Positions 2,729-64,000 of a stretch of DNA of 64,000 nucleotides are shown in pieces. Below the pieces are notes generated by a model. The model had not been told where the DNA came from. It searched no databases and was given only the letters and a program-made list of their open reading frames with translations. Source of the DNA: Porphyridium purpureum (Eukaryota). Positions within the stretch are counted from its first letter, which is position 1. Every line of letters starts with the position of its first letter. The position numbers and the translations under genes were made by a program. The stretch is from contig VRMN01000001.1 in the NCBI GenBank assembly GCA_008690995.1, positions 1,364,001-1,428,000 of the forward strand, read 5' to 3'.

Positions 2729-3381
2729 CCCGGTGTCCTTGCGTGAGAATTGCCGGGAGCAAACGCGGGAGTCGCCGGCTTTTGAAACGTGCTATTCTAT
2801 CGTTGTGGTTGCCCGAACCTGCGTTCTGTGAAGAAGTGCGTCGACGTCAGTCTTCCGTAGGCAACTGCGCTCTGTGACCGTCGCTCGTACTCCATGCTGA
2901 GGTTGCTGCTAGAGTCACTGAATGTGACGGAGGAATCGCGGACAGCGGACGCTCATGGCAGTCCCGCTCCCCGCCACAATGTGCGCCGAGGGAACAAGCC
3001 CACGCCCTCTGGCGCCCCAGCTCTTGCGCGCGTATGCCGTGCGCCATCCCGATCATCTTTCGCAGACGCGGTGGAAGCGCTGCATGCTTGACTTCCAGCG
3101 ATAGCGTGCCGAGCTCGCGCGGGCACAGACAGTGTAAAGCGCGGAGAGCTGTGTTTCGAGCGTGAGTGATAATCTCTAGACACCCGTTTACAGGCGATGC
3201 CAATGGAGCATCACAATCACCATCACCAAACCCCATTACTCCTGCAACGAAATCCGCGTCGTGAAGCGGCCTTCTGATATTCTCGGCTGCACCGGTACTC
3301 ACGAGCCGCTCCACGTCCGCACCAAAGCGCGCCAGCATATTTCTTTTCCTACACCAGCGAGTGCCGAGACGAAAATCCGGA

Positions 3382-4189
3382 CATGGATTAAAAGTGTTCC
3401 GGTCCGAGAGACGCCCTGGGTGTACACCCGGAGGTACGGCGTCTCGGAATTGTTTGAGGTACAGGGGCTTTTTCGCCCGCGTGGTTTTTTACCCTGTACC
3501 TCTGGTTTTGTGTATTGTTGTCTTTCGCCCCGAGGAGCCGGAGTCGCGTGTCCGAGGGAAGCAGGAGCCGCTTGGCGGCCGGCCGGCACCCATTGAGCCG
3601 CTTGCTGACGTGGCTGGCTGTGGCTTCGTTCTGTGGAACGAACGGAGGAAAGCCCAGCCTTTTGGGAGAAATAATTTCTCCCTTCCGCGTCAAGGACAGC
3701 AAGGACGGCGGGGTATATAATGGGCGCGGGCCTGTGCGGTTCCCCGGATTTTCTTTAGAGCGGAAGAAGAGAGGCAAGGGAGTAGGACACAGAGAATAAA
3801 AGAAGAGTTGTTCTTTGGTGTCGGGTGCCTGGGCGTGGTCGTCGGAAGGCGTGGGGCCTTTTGCTGAGCCTGTGTAGCAGAGCCAGCAGCACATCGTGTC
3901 TGGGGGGTTTCGGTGCTCTTAGAGCACTGAAGGCAGACGGCGGCTTTGTCCGTTACGACACCCTGCCCCTGTCGAGACCGGTGCTGTCTGTGCCGACGCG
4001 AAAGGCAATAGTAGAGGCCCTATACGTTGGATTTTCCACGCCCCGGGTATTCGTCGTCTGTGTTGTGTGCGTCGTGTGGTTGTGTTCTCTGTGCTGTGTG
4101 CGTCGTGTTGCTGGGGTTCGGTCATCTGAGAAGGGTTGTGTCATCCGGGTTCGTGCGCTTGTCATCATCAAGCGTGCGAGAATTTAAAG
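3382..4189 (+). repeat. 5' LTR of element 1 (808 bp)
   Basis: Direct repeat of 8574-9383; begins CATGGATT, ends AATTTAAAG; TATATAA at 3714-3720. Confidence 0.95.
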
Positions 4190-4201
4190 TGGTATCATCG
4201 C
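4190..4201 (+). promoter_or_regulatory. Primer-binding site of element 1
   Basis: TGGTATCATCGC directly abuts the LTR end; TGGTATCA is the usual tRNA-iMet-type PBS start; the same 12-mer occurs at 59800-59811. Confidence 0.85.
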
Positions 4202-4211
4202 ATCGGCGAAG

Positions 4212-5168
4212 ATGGATTCTGAGGGAATGGACGTGCAGGGCCTGCAGGGCGGCGCGTCGTGGATTGAAGCTTTCAACCAGCTTCATGCTCGTATCGGAGG
4301 ACAAGAAATGATGATTGTGCAGCTGCAGGAGGGAAACCGCCTCTTGCAGGAGATGCTGCAGAATGTGATGCATCAGGCATCTGTGTCAGCTGGTCCCGGC
4401 GAAACGGAAAGGACCGTTGCATCGCTGATTGGACGCAGCTTGAGAAAATACGACGGACAGCGCGACAAACTCGTTGTGAACGAGTGGTTGTCGAGGATGA
4501 AGCAAGACTTGGACATGTGCATGCCAGCTGGAGCGCTGGAGTCGCAGAAGGTGATCGTAGCGTCGCGCTTCTTTGAGAAGGATGCCGCGCTCCTGTGGGC
4601 AGCTCGCCCTGAGGAACAGAGGATGGCATTGGCCGAGTCCGGTTGGAATGCGTTCGCGAACTTCGTGCGGACGGCATTTGAGCCGCCGCAGGCATACCTG
4701 ACTGCTCGAACGAACTTGTATCAGCTGAAGCAGGGCAAGATGACTGTTGCTGAGTTTGAGCAGCGCCTGAGGATGGTGGCTCTATCCGTGGATAGTGTGA
4801 CGGATGCCGAGCTCAACACCATCTTCACTCTCGGCCTGAAGGAGAAGCTTCGCCTTGAGGTGGCGCGTCAGGACACGAAGACGCTGGAAGAGTCGCTGAG
4901 GGCGGCGTTGGCTGCGGAGCAGGTTGGTAGGTTTGGAGGAGACATGAGGGAGGCTTTTCATGGCGCCTCGAGTCCAAACTACCGGAACAGCTCGTCGTAT
5001 GCCGGGACGGCGCCAATGGATTTGGGCGTCGTGGAGAAACGCCAGCCGGAGAAGCGCAAGCGTGCGGACATGGGCAAAGTCAGATGCTACCATTGCGGGC
5101 AGCGCGGCCACATCAAACCCAATTGCCCAAAGCGGAATGGGCACTTGGCGGGAGGCCCGGAAAACTAA
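4212..5168 (+). CDS. gag: Retrotransposon Gag (capsid-like domain plus CCHC zinc knuckle)
   Basis: KYDG..EWL, LYQLKQGKMTVAEFEQR, PMDLG, and the knuckle CYHCGQRGHIKPNC. Confidence 0.93.
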   Translation: MDSEGMDVQGLQGGASWIEAFNQLHARIGGQEMMIVQLQEGNRLLQEMLQNVMHQASVSAGPGETERTVASLIGRSLRKYDGQRDKLVVNEWLSRMKQDLDMCMPAGALESQKVIVASRFFEKDAALLWAARPEEQRMALAESGWNAFANFVRTAFEPPQAYLTARTNLYQLKQGKMTVAEFEQRLRMVALSVDSVTDAELNTIFTLGLKEKLRLEVARQDTKTLEESLRAALAAEQVGRFGGDMREAFHGASSPNYRNSSSYAGTAPMDLGVVEKRQPEKRKRADMGKVRCYHCGQRGHIKPNCPKRNGHLAGGPEN

Positions 5169-8100
5169 AACCTCGAGGGAGAAGTTGGGAGGTGCACTCG
5201 AGGGGAACGGAACCTCCCGGGATGGGCTTTGTAGGTGAGGTCTGGCGCGCTGATGCGGCGTCGAGGTTGCTCTACAAGCGTGGAACTTTAGATGGCGAGT
5301 CTGTCCAATTTCTGGTGGACAGCGGAGCATCGCACAATTTTCTTGGATCTCGCTTTGTCGGCAGATTTGAAGGGCGCGAGAACGGAATGGTCAAGCTTGC
5401 GGGTGGGCAAAGTGTCTCAGTGCATGGCCCGGTGTTGCAGCATGTTGATCTTGGGTTCTGGAAAGGGCCGGTCAAGTTTTATGTCGGACCTCTGCAAATG
5501 GATGCAATTCTCGGGTGGGACTGGCTGAGTCGCGTGAACCCGAGGATTGATTGGCAGAGGGGTTCGATGGACTTGGAACTTGAAAATGTGGAAGATTGTG
5601 CGATGGTAAATGTCGTGGACGCTCTTTCCGAGTCAAGCGGAAATCAAGCGTACGATGGAGAAGAGGAGAGTGCCAGTGAAGAGGTCGAAGGAAAGATGGC
5701 CGGGATGGAACATGCGTTGACTCACATGCCGATGCGGGATGATTGTGAGACGTGTGTTGTGGCCAAGATCAAGAGCCGACCAGCAAGAAGGCTGGAGAAG
5801 GACTTGTCCACTTTGTCGTTCAATGACGAAGTTGGGATCGACCTGGTGGAGCCCGGACGTAACGTGGAAGCCATCGATGGAGCGAAGTACATGCTGACGC
5901 ACATCGATAGAGCGACGAGGTGGGCCACACTGGCAGGATTGAGAGCCAAAACGCATACGGCGGTTGCTGAAGCTTGGACAAGCGTGCAAGCCGGGCGAGG
6001 ATGGCCAAAGGTACTGAGGACAGATGATGGAAACGAGTTCAGGGGAAATGTGAGCAATTTGGTACGGGAGAATCTCGTGAAGCATGAGATTGGGGTCCCA
6101 CATAGACCGAATAGCCACGCTGAACAGGAACGTTTCCATCATACTTTGAATCAGGGGGTACGAGCAAATCTCCTGCAGTCTGGGCTGGGAAAGCGGTGGT
6201 TTTTGCATGCCGCTCAGCATTTCGTATTCATGTTCAATCGGCTGCACCCAGACAAGAAGTCTGGGAAGTCTCCGTATGAAATGAGGTACGGTGAGAGATG
6301 GAAGCGGGGGAAGGTAGCAGTACCATTTGGGTGCAAGGTGGTTTTCAAGAATGATCAACCGGAGAACAAGTATGCACCCAGAGGAAAGATTGGAGTCCTT
6401 GTTGGAGTTGCGGAGCATCCGCTGGCAATCTGGGTCCTTCCTCAGGAGGAGTGGACGAGTGCGGCACCGAAGCTGACTCGCACTCAGGACTTCAAGGCGT
6501 TCCCTGAAGTGTTTCCAATGCGGACTTTGGAAACAAGGGATGACGAGGAGGTCTCGGCACGTGAGGGTGAAATCGACTTTCACTCTAGGCAGGAAGAACC
6601 GGATAGTCAAGAGACTATGGTGTTGCCTACGAATACGGCCGAGGCGCGTGTATCCGGGAACTTGGAGGAGGATGTTCCCCTACCTATTGGAAGAAGGGGG
6701 AAACGAAAACCCAGGGTATCCTGGAGCCGGGAAGAGGATCAGGCCATCATGGATGGCTTACGGCTCTTTGGCTGGGGGAAGTGGGAAAGAACTCTGCAAG
6801 AATATAAGGCAGTGTTCCGCGATTCAAGAAACGGAAAGGATGTGCGAGCCCGGGCTCATAATATGGGCCTCTCGGAGGAAAATTGGAGGCAACGCGCAGG
6901 AGTTGCTCCAGAAACACCGCAATTGAACTTGACAACTTTGTTGCAGACGAGCCAAGCTCTGGCTTCTTCGGCTGGAAGAGAAGCCATGCAAAAAGAAGTG
7001 GACTTGATGATCCGATTCAAGGTATGGGATGAGCAACCTATTTCAAGGGAAGAAGCTCTCAAGGTCCCAGGCGCACGATTTGTGCGGACACACTTTATAT
7101 TCGGATTGAAGTTCGCTGAGCTTCCGGAGGAGTTTCGCAAGGTCAAGTGTCGGCTTGTTGCTGGTGGAAATAGGATTTGGGATGCCTCAGGGAAGGTCAC
7201 TCAGGATGTGTTTGACTATGAGGTGCCCGCGGGCCTGTCTGCGATCAGAATGCTGATAGCTTTGGCCGCTATCCTAGGATTGAAGATCGTATCGTTCGAT
7301 GTGACGTCGGCGTACTTACACGCTGACTTGTCAGGACCACCGACGTTTGCCATGTTGCCCCGACACGTTCCAGGAGGAGGTGATGGACTTGTCGTTCGCT
7401 TGAGGAGGGCGCTTTATGGCTTGCCAAGAAGCGGGTCTGACTTTTCCCAGGATGCCCGCAGAAGACTTCAAAAGTTCGGGTGGGATTTGATTCACGGCGA
7501 GAAGAACGTATACGTGAAAAAGATGGCGGGAAGTGCATCTGTTGCACTCCTAGCCTTGTATGTCGACGATGGTCTGCTCGCGTGTGTCGAGAAGGATCGG
7601 GGTGAGATATTTCGAGAGTTGAGGTCAGAGTTCCTCATTGAGAAGGAGCCGGAAGTCCTCTCGGAAGGAGCCCCGTTAAGGTTCCTAGGACTCACGATCT
7701 CGGAGTCGGCGACACGGTTTTCGTTGGGTCATGATCACTACCAAGCTTTGGTGGTGAAGGAATTCGAAGAAGAACTTGGGCAGGTGCTGCGAGCGGTGAA
7801 ATCACCAGGTGAGAAGATGAATGCTGACGCTGTATTGGATGTTCAAGTCGAACATGGACATCTGAAAATACGCGAGCATGTCGGGCGGCTGCTGTGGTTG
7901 GCCAGGACGGTCAGACCGGATATCTCCTATGCAGTTGGAGTGGTGGCTCGGTATGTGGATAGCTGGAACGTCGCAGCTGAGAGACTCCTGGTTCGCGTCA
8001 TGCAATACTTGAAGGTGCCTCGTGAGCCACTTGAGTATTTGCAGATGACGTCATTGAAGATCGGCGACGTAAGCGTCTTGGGCTATGCTGATGCCGACTT

Positions 8101-8583
8101 TGCTGGATGCCCGGAAACGCGCAAGTCAACGTCTGGGAGAGTGACGTACTTGGTCGCGGGTGGAAACAAGTATCTGGTCGATTGGAGCTCCAGAAGGCAA
8201 CGCTTTGTGAGCTCTTCGACCTCTGAGTCTGAGATGGCCGCTCTGGAAGAAGCGGTGCAGTTATCTTTGTTTCCGGCATTGTCGTTTCTTCGAAGCGTGC
8301 AAGAGGGGGATTATGCGTTGACCCTGCTTTGTGATAGTCAAGTTGTTCTCCGTGCGGTCGAGATGGGCTACTCGCCAAAGTTGCATCACATGGCAGTGAC
8401 CAGAGCCACGGACTTGGCGTGGATACACCAAGTTTGCGAGAAGCAAAAGCTGGTGAGATTGGAATATGTGAGGACGGGGAAAACGTGTCCGACTTGATGA
8501 CAAAACCTTTGTTTCCGGAAGGTCATATCAGGTGTTGGACTATGTTACGCGTCCCTCAGATCGGAAGGAGGAGCATGGATTAA
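5084..8583 (+). CDS. pol: Pol polyprotein PR-IN-(Myb)-RT-RNase H; 1-nt frameshift near 8476-8480 truncates the annotated ORF at 8497
   Basis: PR LVDSGASHNF; IN HHCC (HALTH..CETC) and D,D,E (GIDLVE, RTDDGNEF, AEQER); Copia-type RT (KCRLVAGG, DVTSAYLHADL, ALYGL, LYVDD, RPDISYAV); RNase H (YADADFAG..RKSTSG, STSESE). Restoring one base gives ..ENVSDLMTKPLFPEGHIRCWTMLRVPQIGRRSMD* ending at 8583, matching element 2. Confidence 0.93.
5159..5220 (+). promoter_or_regulatory. Predicted -1 programmed ribosomal frameshift signal (slippery heptamer plus H-type pseudoknot)
   Basis: G GAA AAC (5159-5165) sits just before the gag stop. 5-nt spacer; stem 1 CCTCGAG 5171-5177 / CTCGAGG 5197-5203; stem 2 GGGAGGT 5187-5193 / ACCTCCC 5212-5218. 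pol is in the -1 frame. Confidence 0.85.
8563..8573 (+). promoter_or_regulatory. Polypurine tract of element 1
   Basis: GGAAGGAGGAG immediately before the 3' LTR; identical at 62288-62298 in element 2. Confidence 0.9.
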
Positions 8584-9383
8584 AAGTGTTCCGGTCCGAG
8601 AGACGCCCTGGGTGTACACCCGGAGGTACGGCGTCTCGGAATTGTTTGAGGTACAGGGGCTTTTTCGCCCGCGTGGTTTTTTACCCTGTACCTCTGGTTT
8701 TGTGTATTGTTGTCTTTCGCCCCGAGGAGCCGGAGTCGCGTGTCCGAGGGAAGCAGGAGCCGCTTGGCGGCCGGCCGGCACCCATTGAGCCGCTTGCTGA
8801 CGTGGCTGGCTGTGGCTTCGTTCCGTGGAACGAACGGAGGAAAGCCCAGCCTTTTGGGAGAAATAATTTCTCCCTTCCGCGTCAAGGACAGCAAGGACGG
8901 CGGGGTATATAATGGGCGCGGGCCTGTGCGGTTCCCCGGATTTTCTTTAGAGCGGAAGAAGAAGAGGCAAGGGAGTAGGACACAGAGAATAAAAGGAAGA
9001 GTTGTTCTTTGGTGTCGGGTGCCTGGGCGTGGTCGTCGGAAGGCGTGGGGCCTTTTGCTGAGCCTGTGTAGCAGAGCCAGCAGCACATCGTGTCTGGGGG
9101 GTTTCGGTGCTCTTAGAGCACTGAAGGCAGACGGCGGCTTTGTCCGTTACGACACCCTGCCCCTGTCGAGACCGGTGCTGTCTGTGCCGACGCGAAAGGC
9201 AATAGTAGAGGCCCTATACGTTGGATTTTCCACGCCCCGGGTATTCGTCGTCTGTGTTGTGTGCGTCGTGTGGTTGTGTTCTCTGTGCTGTGTGCGTCGT
9301 GTTGCTGGGGTTCGGTCATCTGAGAAGGGTTGTGTCATCCGGGTTCGTGCGCTTGTCATCATCAAGCGTGCGAGAATTTAAAG
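8574..9383 (+). repeat. 3' LTR of element 1 (810 bp)
   Basis: By eye differs from the 5' LTR by one substitution and two 1-nt insertions; followed by TSD CCGGA. Confidence 0.95.
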
Positions 9384-10218
9384 CCGGATGCGCACTGTAC
9401 ACCCGTTGGTGTGTGTACCCTTAAACCGCGCGCATTTTTGTATGTGAGCGCGAAAGACAAAGTAACGCTTTCTACGGTGCGTGAGTGCGACGCCGTGGTT
9501 TAATTTTTCAAACTAAGCCACACGGGCGATGGACAAGCATGCGCGTGTCCGCGAAAACAGATGGAAAACAGAAGAAAAAATAAGGGAAAACCCCAAGAAG
9601 AACAAAAACCCCTGCTATGATCCGGGGAAGGGAAAAGCAAGAAAAAAGAGACACGGATCGATGAAAACCATGGTTGGTGAGAAGCTCCTGCCGCTCCTGC
9701 CGCTCCTGCCGCTCCAGTTGCTACAGTCGCAGTGCCGTTGGGTGTGGGTGTGGCTGTGGCTGTGGTGTTAGTACACGCGTGTCTGCGGCTAAAAGGGGGG
9801 AAGAGAATCACGCAGATGGCTCTATGCCCGCCGAGGGAATAGCAGCGTGTCCCCACCGATTTCTACCTCGTGCCAGCAGCTGGCTGTGCAGTGTGTGGAA
9901 GAACGAAGAACGCACACGCGATGCGCTTAGAGCAGGGGGGCGTTGGCCTACACCGTGCCTGCGGCTTCCCGCGTGTGCGATGGTTTACGCGCCCGTTCAG
10001 TCCGGTCTTGGTACACGAATTTGCGCGCGTGGACAGCACGCGTCCGGCATTGAAGAGGTCGCTCAGACGGTAAGTGGCATAAGAAGACGGACGGCGTGTC
10101 GGTGTTCGTCAGGTGCGGGGGACGCAGAGGAGAGTTGGGAACGGCAATAGTCAGGCTGGTGTGGCGGCACGTGCGCGGGAGTATCGAGGGTGGAGACAAA
10201 CGCATCCGATACCGAGCT

Positions 10219-58910: not shown

Positions 58911-59001
58911 CCTCTCTGGCCAGAACTGTACTTCTGCGCTGTACTGGCTGCTAGAACGCGGTTCAGTGCGCTCACGATATGTACACTTGTAGCCATGTGA
59001 A

Positions 59002-59799
59002 CGTGGAATTTTAGGGTTCCGCCCCGAGAGACGCCGTAGGGTTTTGAGTACAAAACCCTAGAAAGTTCTATGATGAAAGATTGTTCGAGAAGCGTGATGA
59101 TCTCGGACCTGCGAAATGTTTGTCATTGTCGTTTTGTGTGGCCTTGTGCAAAGGTCAAAGGCCGGCCGAAGCTTCTGGATTCGTTCTTGACGCGCCCTCC
59201 CGGCCATTTTCCGGATACGTGGCCGGCTGTGGTTGCGAGTTGTGGAACGAATCAAAACCTGTGGTGGAAATTCGTCCTGTTGGAGAAATTTGTTCTCCCG
59301 TCCTTGCTGGAAAGAGCAAGGACGAAGGGTATAAAAGGACGAAGGGGCAAGCTGGTTCCCAGGAATTTCCAGGTCAAGGTAGAAGAAGAGGTAAGGGCAA
59401 ATAGAATAAAAAAGAGAATTGGTTAGTTGGATTGAGGCAGTCGTTGGAAGACTTGGGTTGGATTTGCGGGAGAGGCACGCTAGCGTGTTGTGCGAGCGGA
59501 TATCGGTCTGGAGTGTTTTTAAAAAGGCAGCTGGGGTTTAAACGTACCTTCCATCACCCTTCACTTGTCAAGACCGGTCCACTCCCTCTCGTAGTCCCCT
59601 ATAAGTTGAATTTTCTGTCCTCTCTTCCTTTCTAGCCACTTTTCTCTGATTGTCCCGCTTGTCCTTCCGTTCGTTTCGGTGTGTCGGTTCGTCGTCGGTT
59701 TGTCAGTTTCCGGGGTGTGGCGGTTTCCAGTTCCTGTTATCGGTGAAGCGGTCCGGTTTTGTTGATTCGGTTACAAAGCAGAAAGGGAGAAATTCCAAG
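59002..59799 (+). repeat. First LTR of element 2 (798 bp)
   Basis: Begins CGTGGAATT, ends AATTCCAAG, followed by TGGTATCATCGC; TATAAAA at 59330-59336. Confidence 0.9.
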
Positions 59800-59828
59800 T
59801 GGTATCATCGCCCGGTTGTTTGGAGAAA

Positions 59829-62311
59829 ATGGAAAGCCATGAAATGGAAATGAATGTCCCGCAGGAGAATGCGGCATGGATTGAGGCAGCTAATCAGCTG
59901 CATGCGCGCATTGCGGGACAGGAGATGATGATGGGAATGAGTTCAAGGGAGATGTGGGGAGACTGGTGCGTGAACACCTCATAAAGCACGAGGTGGGGAT
60001 TCCGTACAGGCCAAACAGTCACGCTGAACAGGAGCGGTTTCACCACACGCTGAATCAGGGAATCCGTGCGAATCTTGTGCAGGCCGGACTCGGGAAGCGT
60101 TGGTTCATGCACGCCGCGCAGCATTTTGCGTTCATGACGAATAGACTTCACGTGGGCAGGAAGTCTGGAAAGACGCCGTTTGAATTACGACATGGTGAAA
60201 AATGGTCGCCGAGAAATCTTAGTTTGCCATTCGGGTGCAAGGTGGTCTACAAAGATGATCAGCCTGACAATAAGTATGCACCGCGAGGAAAAGTTGGCAT
60301 TCTCGTCGGCGTTGGAGAGCATCCGATGGCACTTTTGGTGCTTCCTCGGGATGACTGGACGAGTGAGACCCCAAAAGTAATTCGCACTCAGGATTTTAAG
60401 GCATTTACCCATGAGTTCCCTTTAAAAGGAATTGAACGAGAGATGGTGAGCCTTAGCCAGCAGGAAGAGTTGCCAGAAGTGGACGAACCATCCGCGGTTG
60501 AAGCGGTGCAGGACTTGGATCGTCGTATCGATGCTCTCAGAACTAGAGAAGCGGAGCTTGAGAAAGAGATCGAGGCATTGAAAGTGAGGGTGGTTGACGA
60601 AGAACGGGCAGCAGGCACGGGTGGTCCAGTGGCGATCCCACAGTTGAACTTGACGACTTTGCTGAAAACTGGAGCGGCGTTGGCGTCTGAGCAAGGACGA
60701 GCCGCGATGGAAAAAGAAGTCAAATCCATGCTGAAATTTGGGGTATGGGATGAGAGTCCCTTGACGCTGGAGGAGGCCCGGAGGCAACCTGGTGCTCGTT
60801 TCGTACGCACACATTTCATTTTCGGTCTGAAATTTGCTGAGATGCCGGAAGAATTTCGCAAGGTGAAGTGCCGCTTGGTGGCCGGGGGAAACAGGATATG
60901 GGGGTCCGATGGAGCTGCGACGAATGACATTTTTGATTATGAGACGCCTGCTGGTTTGTCAGCTATCCGAATGATAATAGCTGTGGCTGCAATTCTGGGC
61001 CTTCAGATTGTTAGCTTCGACATCAGTTCGGCATACCTCCATGCGGACCTGTCTGGGCCACCTACGTTTGCATATTTACCGCGTGAAATTTGTGATTCAA
61101 AAGGCACAGTAGTCAGGCTGAGAAAGGCGCTGTATGGCTTGCCCAGGAGCGGCTCGGATTTCTCACAAGATGCTCGGAGGAGATTGCAAAAGTTCCAGTG
61201 GAAGCTCGTGCATGGTGAAAAGAATGTGTACGTCCGGAGAAATGCTGCAAGTTCGTCAGTTGCATTGCTGGCTCTGTACGTGGATGATGGTCTATTAGCC
61301 TGTCGAGAGGAGGAACGCCCAGGAATCATCGAAGAATTGAAACAAGAGTTTCTCATGGAAAAAGCACCAGAACTATTGACGGAAGGGGGATCCTTGAGAT
61401 TCCTGGGGACGAGCATTTCCCTCAAAAATGGGAGCGTGAGTTTGGCGAATCAAGAGTATCAAGATGTGGTCGTTCGGGAATTTGAGCAGGATATTAGACG
61501 CGTATTGCGTGCCGTGAAGTCACCATCTGAGAAGCTAGATGGCGAGGAAGTTCTGAATTATCAAGTCATCTGGAAGACTTTGAAAGTAAGAGAACACGTC
61601 GGGAGGCTGATGTGGCTCGCCAGAACGGTTCGACCTGACATTGCGTATGCAGTCGGTATGATTGCCCGGTACGTTGACAAGTGGAATATGGCAGCAGAAA
61701 GGCTGCTCGTACGAGTCGTGCAGTATTTGAAAACACCTCGGGAAGCATTGGAGTATCACGTGTTGGGGAATCTCAAGGAAGGCATCAGAGGGGTGAACAT
61801 TGTTGGATACACGGATGCTGACTTTGCTGGTTGTCCAGAGAGTCGTGTGTCGACTTCTGGAAGAGCAACGTACTTAGTTGCTGGAGATTACAAGTACCTA
61901 GTGGATTGGTCTTCAAGAAAGAAGCGTTTCGTGAGCTCGTCGACTTCAGAGTCGGAGCTGGCCGCCCTAGAGGAAACTGTGCAACTCTCGTTGTTTCCTG
62001 CATTGTCTTTCTTGCGAAGTATACGTGACGGAGAGTTCTCGGTGATTTTGATGTGTGACAATCAAGCTGTGATGCGAGTAATAGAGATGGGGTACTCGCC
62101 AAAGTTGCATCATATGGCGATAACCCGAGCAACAGATTTGGCCTGGTTGCATCAGGTGTGCGAAAAGCAGAAACTTGTGAAACTGGTATTTGTGAAGACG
62201 GACGAAAATGTGGCGGACTTAATGACCAAGGCCTTATTTCCGGAGGGCCACATTAAGTGCTGGGAGAAGTTACGCGTCCCTCAGACCGGAAGGAGGAGCG
62301 TGGAATTTTAG
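59829..62311 (+). pseudogene. pol: gag N-terminal stub fused out of frame to a 5'-truncated pol (half IN, coiled coil, intact RT-RNase H)
   Basis: WIEAANQLHARIAGQEMM (gag) joins DDGNEFKG (integrase) at 59924-59933; ORF 59954-62311 aligns with element 1 Pol. Confidence 0.9.
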
Positions 62312-63077
62312 GGTTCCGCCCCGAGAGACGCCGTAGGGTTTTGAGTACAAAACCCTAGAAAGTTCTATGATGAAAGATTGTTCGAGAAGCGTGATGATCT
62401 CGGACCTGTGAAATGTTTGTCATTGTCGTTTTGTGTGGCCTTGTGCAAAGGTCAAAGGCCGGCCGAAGCTTCTGGATTCGTTCTTGACGCGCCCTCCCGG
62501 CCATTTTCCGGATACGTGGCCGGCTGTGGTTGCGAGTTGTGGAACGAATCAAAACCTGTGGTGGAAATTCGTCCTGTTGGGAAATTTGAATTCTCCGTCC
62601 CGCTGGAAAGAGCAAGGACGAAGGGTATAAAAGGACGAAGGCGTTGGTTCCCAGGAACTGCGTCAAGGGGTAGAAGAAGAGGGGCAAGAAATAAAAAGAG
62701 AATTCAATAGCTAATTGAGCATTAGCCGGAAGACTTGGGTTGGATTTCAGGAGAGGCACGCGAAGCGTGCTGTGCGAGCGGGATATCGGTCTGGAGCGTT
62801 TTTAAAAAAGGCAGCTAATTTAAACAAAACCTTCCATCACCCTTCACTCTAATAAGACCGGTCCACTCTCCTCGTAGTCCCCTATAAGCTGGAATTTTCT
62901 TGTCCCTCTTCTAGCCACCTCTTTCTGATTGTCCCGCTTGTCCTTCCGTTCGCTCTCGGTGTGTCGGTTCGCCGTCGGCCTTGTCAGTTCTGGGTGCGGC
63001 GGCTCTCAGTCCTGCTATCGGTGAAGCGGTCCGGCTCTTTTGCTGATCTGGTTACAAAGCAGAAAGGGAGAAATCGC
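62299..63077 (+). repeat. Second (shared) LTR of element 2; 3' end and PBS degraded
   Basis: Repeat of 59002-59799: near identical for about 280 bp, then many small indels. Confidence 0.85.
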
Positions 63078-64000
63078 GGTAATTACCGCCCGGTTGTTTG
63101 AGAAAATGGAAAGCCATGAAATGAGGCACGAATGTCCCAGTAGTGAGGAAAATGCGGTGATGGATTAGGCAGCTAATCAGCTGCATGCGCGCATTGCGGG
63201 ACAGGAGATGATGATGGGAAATGAGTCTGCTGGAGATGGGGAGATTCGGAGAGGCAGAACACCTCATAAAGCACGAGGTGGGGATTCCGTACAGGCCAAA
63301 CAGTCATGCTGAACAGCAGCGGTTTCACCACACGCTGAATCAGGGAATCCGTGCGAATCTTGTGCAGGCCGGACTCGGGAAGCGTTGGTTCATGCACGCC
63401 GCGCAGCATTTTGCGTTCATGACGAATAGACTTCACGTGGGCAGGAAGTCTGGAAAGACGCCGTTTGAATTACGACATGGTGAAAAATGGTCGCCGAGAA
63501 ATCTTAGTTTGCCATTCGGGTGCAAGGTGGTCTACAAAGATGATCAGCCTGACAATAAGTATGCACCGCGAGGAAAAGTTGGCATTCTCGTCGGCGTTGG
63601 AGAGCATCCGATGGCAATTTTGGTGCTTCCTCGGGATGACTGGACGAGTGAGACCCCAAAAGTAATTCGCACTCAGGATTTTAAGGCATTTACCCATGAG
63701 TTCCCTTTAAAGGGAATTGAACGAGAGATGGTGAGCCTGAGCCAGCAGGAAGAGTTGCCAGAAGTGGACGAACCATCCGCGGTTGAAGCGGTGCAGGACT
63801 TGGATCGTCGTATCGATGCTCTCAGAGCTAGAGAAGCGGAGCTTGAGAAAGAGATCGAGGCATTGAAAGTGAGAGTGGTTGACGAAGAACGGGCAGCAGG
63901 CACGGGTGGTCCAGTGACGATCCCACAGTTGAACTTAACGACTTTGCTGAAAACTGGAGCGGCGTTGGCGTCTGAGCAAGGACGAGCCGCGATGGAAAAA
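63078..64000 (+). pseudogene. Second copy of the deleted internal region (partial)
   Basis: Repeats about 59810-60714, including the same gag/IN junction. Confidence 0.88.

Follow-up and report, generated by a model that had tools for sequence, protein, structure and literature searches.

In a 64,000-nucleotide (nt) stretch of Porphyridium purpureum DNA (contig VRMN01000001.1, positions 1,364,001 to 1,428,000; hereafter the window) we identified a long terminal repeat (LTR) retrotransposon whose gag and pol genes are probably connected by a -1 ribosomal frameshift. We put at roughly three in four the probability that tRNA-Glu and tRNA-Asn slip in tandem by one base at the heptamer G_GAA_AAC, so that a minority of ribosomes bypass the UAA stop codon of gag and produce Gag-Pol. 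A predicted H-type pseudoknot 5 nt downstream may stimulate this slippage. Judged by its predicted domains, the element combines a gag and protease of the Gypsy type with an integrase, reverse transcriptase (RT) and RNase H of the Copia type, and the best reading is that -1 frameshifting was inherited along with the Gypsy gag-protease module. The window is intron-poor eukaryotic DNA with a GC content of about 55%, and the pol protein gave a 100% match to a record named Copia protein from P. purpureum.

An initial annotation of this DNA, made from the letters alone, had proposed that pol overlaps gag in the -1 frame, that G GAA AAC lies immediately ahead of the gag stop codon and that two interleaved perfect 7-bp stems follow after 5 nt, and all of this was borne out (Table 1). 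The heptamer is of the X_XXY_YYZ form and is placed in the zero frame inside the stretch where both open reading frames (ORFs) overlap. The predicted stems begin 5 nt 3' of it, and stimulatory structures are usually located about 5-9 nt downstream of a -1 slip site. Stem 2 grows to 9 pairs when G-U pairs are allowed (5185-5193/5212-5220), with a stacking energy of -16.1 to -17.5 kcal/mol, and together with stem 1 it forms an interleaved H-type topology with loops of 7, 3 and 8 nt using the 9-pair stem. G_GA is an accepted XXX variant in -1 heptamers according to the section consulted of PMC5009743. Two further heptamers were considered and rejected. G_GGA_AAC at 4331-4337 is canonical and in frame early in gag, and it is located outside the pol overlap and has no comparable knot; T_CCA_AAC at 4973 would lose the zinc knuckle as a slip site and also has no comparable knot.

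The knot was evaluated against three controls using our own stem finder. One of 3000 dinucleotide shuffles gave two Watson-Crick stems of at least 7 pairs each, as did 2 of 3000 recodings in which the pol frame was varied at random among synonymous codons. Of the 400 slippery-type heptamers that the two strands of the window contain, only the site at 5159 had both stems of at least 6 pairs. The cassette is well beyond chance, and a -1 frameshift cassette, as initially annotated, is the best reading of the predicted signal. A search of Rfam gave no family match for the junction structure.

In the proposed mechanism, the majority of ribosomes would read GAA AAC and halt at UAA, yielding a Gag protein of 318 amino acids that includes the zinc knuckle. 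A minority would stall at the downstream structure; both tRNAs would re-pair one base back, from GAA to GGA with one mismatch and from AAC to AAA, and decoding would go on as ...GGPEN-LKPRG... into the protease, integrase, RT and RNase H. The size of the frameshifting minority would fix the excess of Gag. The slip site likely arrived with a Gypsy gag-protease module that would have been recombined onto a Copia-order pol.

Other copies of the element have the same layout. Family 1, to which the element belongs, is a protein cluster of 17 members, 15 of which were listed. Copies with gag and pol in one frame, which the initial annotation had named as the finding that would contradict it, did not turn up: 0 of these 15 members runs from gag to pol in one frame through the knuckle, and in family 2 gag is separate. 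Fourteen of the family 1 members join gag to pol by deleting the knuckle, with seven linking MGKV to HSRGT and seven linking KVRCYH to WRSW, and the other is gag alone, with the end GGPEN. From the sequences, these joins equal introns of about 5079-5191 or 5095-5177, both of which remove the knuckle. Because the frame changes at the junction, we read the annotated introns as gene-finder fixes, and the 14 public gene models likely carry false introns at this position. Family 2 is 71% identical to family 1 in gag and 67% in pol. Its gag is a separate protein of 315 amino acids with the C terminus PEPEN, and 14 of its 15 listed pol models begin separately at MEPPVMG. A gag from Logan with 57% identity ends in EQEN and a degraded copy in ESEN; at the protein level, Glu-Asn-stop terminates all eight aligned gags, which represent four types. 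The residue ahead of Glu-Asn is Pro, Gln or Ser, and a codon ending in G is possible in every case. These ends would fit a G_GAA_AAC_stop kept in the gag relatives. The Glu-Pro-Pro encoding the 3' strand of stem 2 is also kept in family 2. The arrangement in two ORFs is a trait of the family.

For the contigs of four runs, one of them recorded as RNA and the other three guessed, no splice joint or indel was listed at the junction, which three of the runs bridge gap-free and the fourth covers. As contigs lose rare forms, minor splicing may still take place. The cassette was unchanged among the listed variants and the contigs of the four runs; the copies differ by only about 1%, so this was not counted as conservation. 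DNA of close relatives was found neither by gag alignment in the metagenome and viral contigs scanned nor by pol alignment in the prokaryote genomes and viral contigs scanned, and a metagenome scan with pol gave distant protease relatives only, without close relatives. A protein search for N-terminal pol fragments of 137-438 amino acids found none.

The Gypsy-type nature of the 5' module, also claimed initially, was upheld by profile matches of both gag and protease and by the Gypsy RT and -1 layout of the protease relatives described below. At E<=0.01, the Pfam families matched by Gag were Retrotrans_gag, Ty3_capsid and zf-CCHC, with no Copia gag family among them, and its best solved relative by profile was dArc1 (E 0.001). 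Its best 150 representatives are nearly all short stand-alone gag-like proteins, and the sole full-length element among them is a canonical Gypsy element (22 proteins scanned). In 123 tails of gag relatives past the knuckle, Gly-Asn was found within the last 9 residues in 32, compared to 7.7 in shuffles, an excess that would be expected as the trace of G_GGA_AAC sites. The protease matched Gypsy/retroviral Pfam families only and has the motif DAILGW (ILG state); the LLS motif is present in nearly all Copia proteases, with few exceptions, in the part of the source consulted. When Copia hallmarks were examined, the element had neither the LLS protease motif nor a Copia-type gag; as to the hallmarks of Gypsy, it has the gag and the ILG protease, and lacks the RVT_1 RT and the RNase H. 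The 5' module (gag and protease) is thus Gypsy-type by several tests.

The rest of the element has the features of Copia (Pseudoviridae), namely LTRs, a primer binding site and a polypurine tract, the order protease (PR), integrase (IN), RT and RNase H (RH), and Copia-type RT, RNase H and integrase. Both RT and RNase H match Copia rows. In a 14-row tree the integrase is placed with Copia (98/98), and the RT groups with the RVT_2 proteins P0010 and P0011 (91/88) rather than with two GalEa-like rows; the integrase and RT trees are small and long-branched and carry our own row labels. P0010, the nearest RT relative, has a Copia-like protease with LLS.

The protease relatives provide a view of the junction in related elements. 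A metagenome scan confirmed 111 stretches, of which the best 80 were analysed. The downstream RT was Gypsy at 37 of the 80 loci, Copia at 0 and undetected at 43. At the 59 loci with gag-profile calls, the protease was in the -1 frame with respect to gag in 43, in frame in 11, in frame with a stop in 1 and in the +1 frame in 4. When the knuckle pattern was made stricter, the -1 relation held at 40 of 41 loci, and a YYY-Z type site was located inside the overlap in 35 of these 40. After grouping at 60% protease identity, 16 of the 17 groups with a call were in -1. Many of these loci probably read TAA/TAG as sense and were counted under NCBI table 6. Most sites are A_AAA_AAC or T_TTA_AAC, at most 1 codon from the gag stop; they lie 34-52 codons ahead of the catalytic Asp, compared to 53 in the element. 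At one locus (L023) the site reads G_GAA_AAC_TGA, with a heptamer identical to that of the element. The slip-beside-stop layout is therefore common to the element and its Gypsy kin. The initial annotation had counted the cassette as independent support for a Gypsy origin. The support stands, but its independence does not: the cassette is contained in the gag-protease module and would move along with it, so the slip site is linked support. As a separate observation, many Gypsy elements among loci L003-L078 (contig series JAAUY and JACC) have TAA/TAG and almost no TGA in the protease frame, a pattern that would fit a host in which TAA/TAG are sense codons, and most of these elements have a -1 slippery site adjoining a TGA gag stop.

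Several observations weigh against this reading of the junction and of its origin. Re-pairing in the P site would leave one mismatch. The nested folding energy of the region is ordinary (z -0.22), and when the folded region is lengthened to 5240, a nested hairpin of -25.0 kcal/mol takes the 5' strand of stem 1 and keeps stem 2. The summed stacking of the knot stems is -32.2 ahead of any loop penalty, and a pseudoknot loop penalty, roughly 5-12 kcal/mol, reduces this value, so the knot and the nested hairpin are energetically not separable here. The first pol-frame ATG 3' of the gag stop is located at 5222, upstream of the protease and 32 codons ahead of the catalytic Asp; it is kept in both families and would allow separate initiation. 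When 20 slip sites of the protease relatives were examined with the same finder, 0 had an H-type knot at p<0.05, compared to p 0.007 for the element. The initial view of the pseudoknot as a Gypsy inheritance was therefore not sustained; what the element and its relatives have in common is the slippery site beside the stop. A motif typical of Gypsy had served to select the loci of the protease relatives, many of which belong to a single contig series. For the Gag structure model (pLDDT score 84.9), Foldseek put dArc, Ty3 and PEG10 first and Copia 16th, whereas VIA-align placed Copia second (Z 11.7, root-mean-square deviation 5.2 A; dArc2, Z 10.7 and 2.8 A). As the two programs rank differently, the capsid fold is not decisive between Gypsy and Copia.

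Other explanations of how Pol is expressed were weighed against tandem slippage with a knot. It is possible, although unlikely, that -1 shifting is stimulated by the long nested hairpin, by stem 2 alone or by the adjacent stop, which would be a sub-case of the same slippage. The hairpin begins 4 nt 3' of the heptamer, and no knot was detected at the slip-plus-stop sites of the Gypsy relatives. A precedent for a stop-codon effect is pea enation mosaic umbravirus, where a stop immediately 3' of a G_GA site is essential (PMC5009743, section consulted). However, the helix of the nested hairpin needs several G-U pairs and a bulge, and two perfect interleaved 7-bp Watson-Crick stems are rare by all three controls. 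Separate production of Pol from the ATG at 5222, with ribosomes re-initiating past the gag stop or translating a shorter RNA, would make the slip site a relic. This ATG is kept as Met-Gly in family 2, where a second ATG sits five codons earlier, and the consulted parts of the literature describe a promoter at the gag-pol junction of Tca2 and separated ORFs in Bianca Copia elements. Still, it would leave unexplained the Glu-Asn-stop in four divergent gag types, the -1 frame that is open from the slip site on and the paired stems, and we hold it to be improbable. Splicing of Gag-Pol, as implied by the splice-type junction in 14 of the 15 listed family 1 models, we regard as highly improbable. 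Splicing does regulate Drosophila copia and Arabidopsis Copia elements, but in the excerpts consulted it yields Gag and not Gag-Pol. Moreover, near-identical copies are given two junctions, seven each and both without the zinc knuckle, the family 2 gene models have no such junction, and neither splice joint was listed in the contigs of the four runs.

The remaining alternatives concern the origin of the element and of its frame change. The element could be non-recombinant, an old deep-branching Copia lineage in which the gag, the protease and the -1 signal are ancestral or convergent. The integrase and RT trees have long branches and sparse sampling, the capsid fold is common to all groups, and a few Copia proteases deviate from LLS. 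On the other hand, the nearest RT relative, P0010, bears a Copia-like LLS protease, all 37 protease relatives with an RT are Gypsy, and the gag matches are to Gypsy-type families, with no Copia gag family among them; we consider this origin doubtful. The frame change could also be an indel, arisen by chance or in assembly, in an element with a single ORF. This copy does have a private one-base difference near 8475-8478, but the gag stop is common to other copies and three other gag types, and the four runs had no indel listed at the junction, leaving this explanation with a negligible probability.

A -1 frameshift with a pseudoknot is typical of Gypsy elements and retroviruses, and two-ORF elements also occur in Copia, mtanga being one whose frame is unstated. 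CoRex1 and CoDi are further two-ORF Copia elements described without a stated frame in the sections consulted. As far as the consulted parts of the sources go, Copia elements are expressed from a single ORF or through splicing, +1 shifting or bypass of a stop; SIRE is the only one of 16 plant Copia lineages for which overlapping frames are listed, and these are +1, and in 28 of 51 animal elements pol is in -1, with superfamilies not split. A full-text literature search turned up no description of either this family or any Copia element that has a -1 pseudoknot, which is weak evidence of absence. Ty3/Gypsy elements (the chromovirus Tcn1, Selgy and PEG10-type -1 signals) resemble the element in gag families, ILG protease and stand-alone gag, and overlapping ORFs prevail in Tcn1 (60%) and Selgy (65%) in the excerpts consulted. 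Unlike them, the element has an RVT_2 RT, a Copia-type RNase H and the integrase ahead of the RT. Two-ORF Copia elements (Ty1/Ty2/Ty4, Tca2, sireviruses, Bianca) have in common with it the PR-IN-RT-RH order, a tRNA-Met primer site, a 5-bp duplication and separate gag and pol; in contrast, according to the same partial sources, their junctions are +1 (Ty1/Ty2/Ty4), stop-codon (Tca2, with a putative pseudoknot) or gapped, and their gag and protease are Copia-type.

The GalEa clade, with CoPorcru1/2 of Porphyridium cruentum and PyRE10G of Porphyra, also comprises red-algal elements of Copia order with a mixed domain history, and PyRE10G is titled as bearing a gypsy-like integrase, in the parts of the sources available. 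By the clade description there, GalEa is set apart by a DTG(C/A) protease and the primer site TGGTAGCAGAGC, whereas the element has DSGA and TGGTATCATC. In our small tree the integrase of the GalEa-like P0015 sides with Gypsy, and that of the element with Copia. Gmr1-like Gypsy elements, as described in the excerpts, have a Gypsy-type 5' part and an integrase ahead of the RT like the element, but they are Gypsy by their RT, whereas its RT is Copia-type. Fusagraviruses and SpFV1-like double-stranded RNA viruses have G_GAA_AAC directly ahead of the ORF1 stop and a structure downstream, and the -1 sites there are also predictions in the sections consulted; their genomes are unrelated to the element. 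These comparisons draw on parts of PMC5580714, PMC3587641, PMC5445492, PMC11889832, PMC2194720, PMC2774666, PMC4881467, PMC3832450, PMC7175516, PMC12440569, PMC2806351 and PMC6317226, and on PMC8515867.

The LTR element spans 3382-9383, with the CCGGA duplication on both flanks, and its features are collected in Table 1. Aligned with each other, the two LTRs show 1 mismatch and 2 internal gap columns. Because of the near-identical LTRs, the CCGGA duplication, the primer site and the polypurine tract, we regard the element as a recent insertion. The primer site TGGTATCA is presumably the complement of the 3' end of initiator tRNA-Met. The LTR termini are not TG...CA; they are CATGG...TTTAAAG in family 1, where the boundary was set by CCGGA, and CGTGG...TTCCAAG in family 2. 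Family 2 copies are found in the same window at 59001-64000 as a tandem LTR-internal-LTR-internal arrangement. Most of gag is missing from them, as are the frameshift region, the protease and the beginning of the integrase. Near 8475-8478 the copy of the element is 1 base shorter than some contigs in three of the four runs. This shortfall makes pol end early in RNase H and is a private mutation or an assembly error. The integrase zinc finger (about 5711-5770) is unusually short, H-x3-H-x6-C-x2-C, and that of P0010 is similarly short. The Myb/SANT-like domain resembles TRF1 telomere-binding domains (Pfam E 6e-5, just under the cut-off) and could be a putative targeting module; at its position family 2 carries another stretch, helical and rich in charged residues.

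Table 1. Features of the element and its gag-pol junction, in window coordinates.
Feature	Position	Strand	Basis
Target-site duplication CCGGA	3377..3381, repeat at 9384-9388	+	Sequence
5' LTR, 808 nt, ends CATGG...TTTAAAG	3382..4189	+	LTR-LTR comparison
Primer binding site TGGTATCA	4190..4197	+	Sequence
gag, 318 amino acids, C terminus ...GGPEN-stop; Retrotrans_gag, Ty3_capsid, one CCHC knuckle	4212..5168	+	ORF, profile search
pol ORF between two stops, in the -1 frame with respect to gag and overlapping it	4931..8497	+	ORF
Slippery heptamer G_GAA_AAC, gag frame, last such site ahead of stop	5159..5165	+	Sequence
Spacer, 5 nt (TAAAA): gag stop TAA (5166-5168) and 2 nt	5166..5170	+	Sequence
Competing nested long hairpin, 5170-5178 with 5227-5236 around stem 2, -25.0 kcal/mol	5170..5236	+	Folding
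Predicted stem 1, CCTCGAG/CTCGAGG, 7 Watson-Crick pairs, stacking -14.7 kcal/mol	5171-5177/5197-5203	+	Stem finder
Predicted stem 2, GGGAGGT/ACCTCCC, 7 Watson-Crick pairs	5187-5193/5212-5218	+	Stem finder
Aspartic protease, Gypsy/retroviral type, DSGASHNF and ILG motif	5282..5533	+	Profile search
Integrase: short HHCC finger, rve core, weak SH3_retrovirus	5693..6520	+	Profile search, tree
Myb/SANT-like domain 3' of integrase; not kept in sister family	6713..6862	+	Profile search
Copia-type reverse transcriptase, RVT_2 E 8e-17	7076..7768	+	Profile search
Copia-type RNase H	8048..8497	+	Copia reference rows matched
Polypurine tract GGAAGGAGGAG	8563..8573	+	Sequence
3' LTR, 810 nt	8574..9383	+	LTR-LTR comparison

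The signal itself is classic, and it is its setting in a Copia-order element that is unusual. LTR superfamilies are classified as though gag, protease and the pol core descend together, and one large survey, in the part consulted, discarded elements with chimeric signs as likely errors. We see about even odds that the element represents a recently mobile lineage of at least three families that arose by recombination between superfamilies, with a Gypsy gag, slip site and protease placed on a Copia integrase-RT-RNase H core; that it would be the first Copia-order element with pseudoknot-stimulated -1 shifting; and that capsid, protease and expression signal would form one exchangeable unit. If true, a young multi-copy Gypsy-Copia hybrid would indicate that exchange at the protease/integrase boundary is viable, and control of the Gag:Pol ratio would have been inherited from the capsid donor. 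The element offers a compact test case for -1 frameshifting on red-algal ribosomes.

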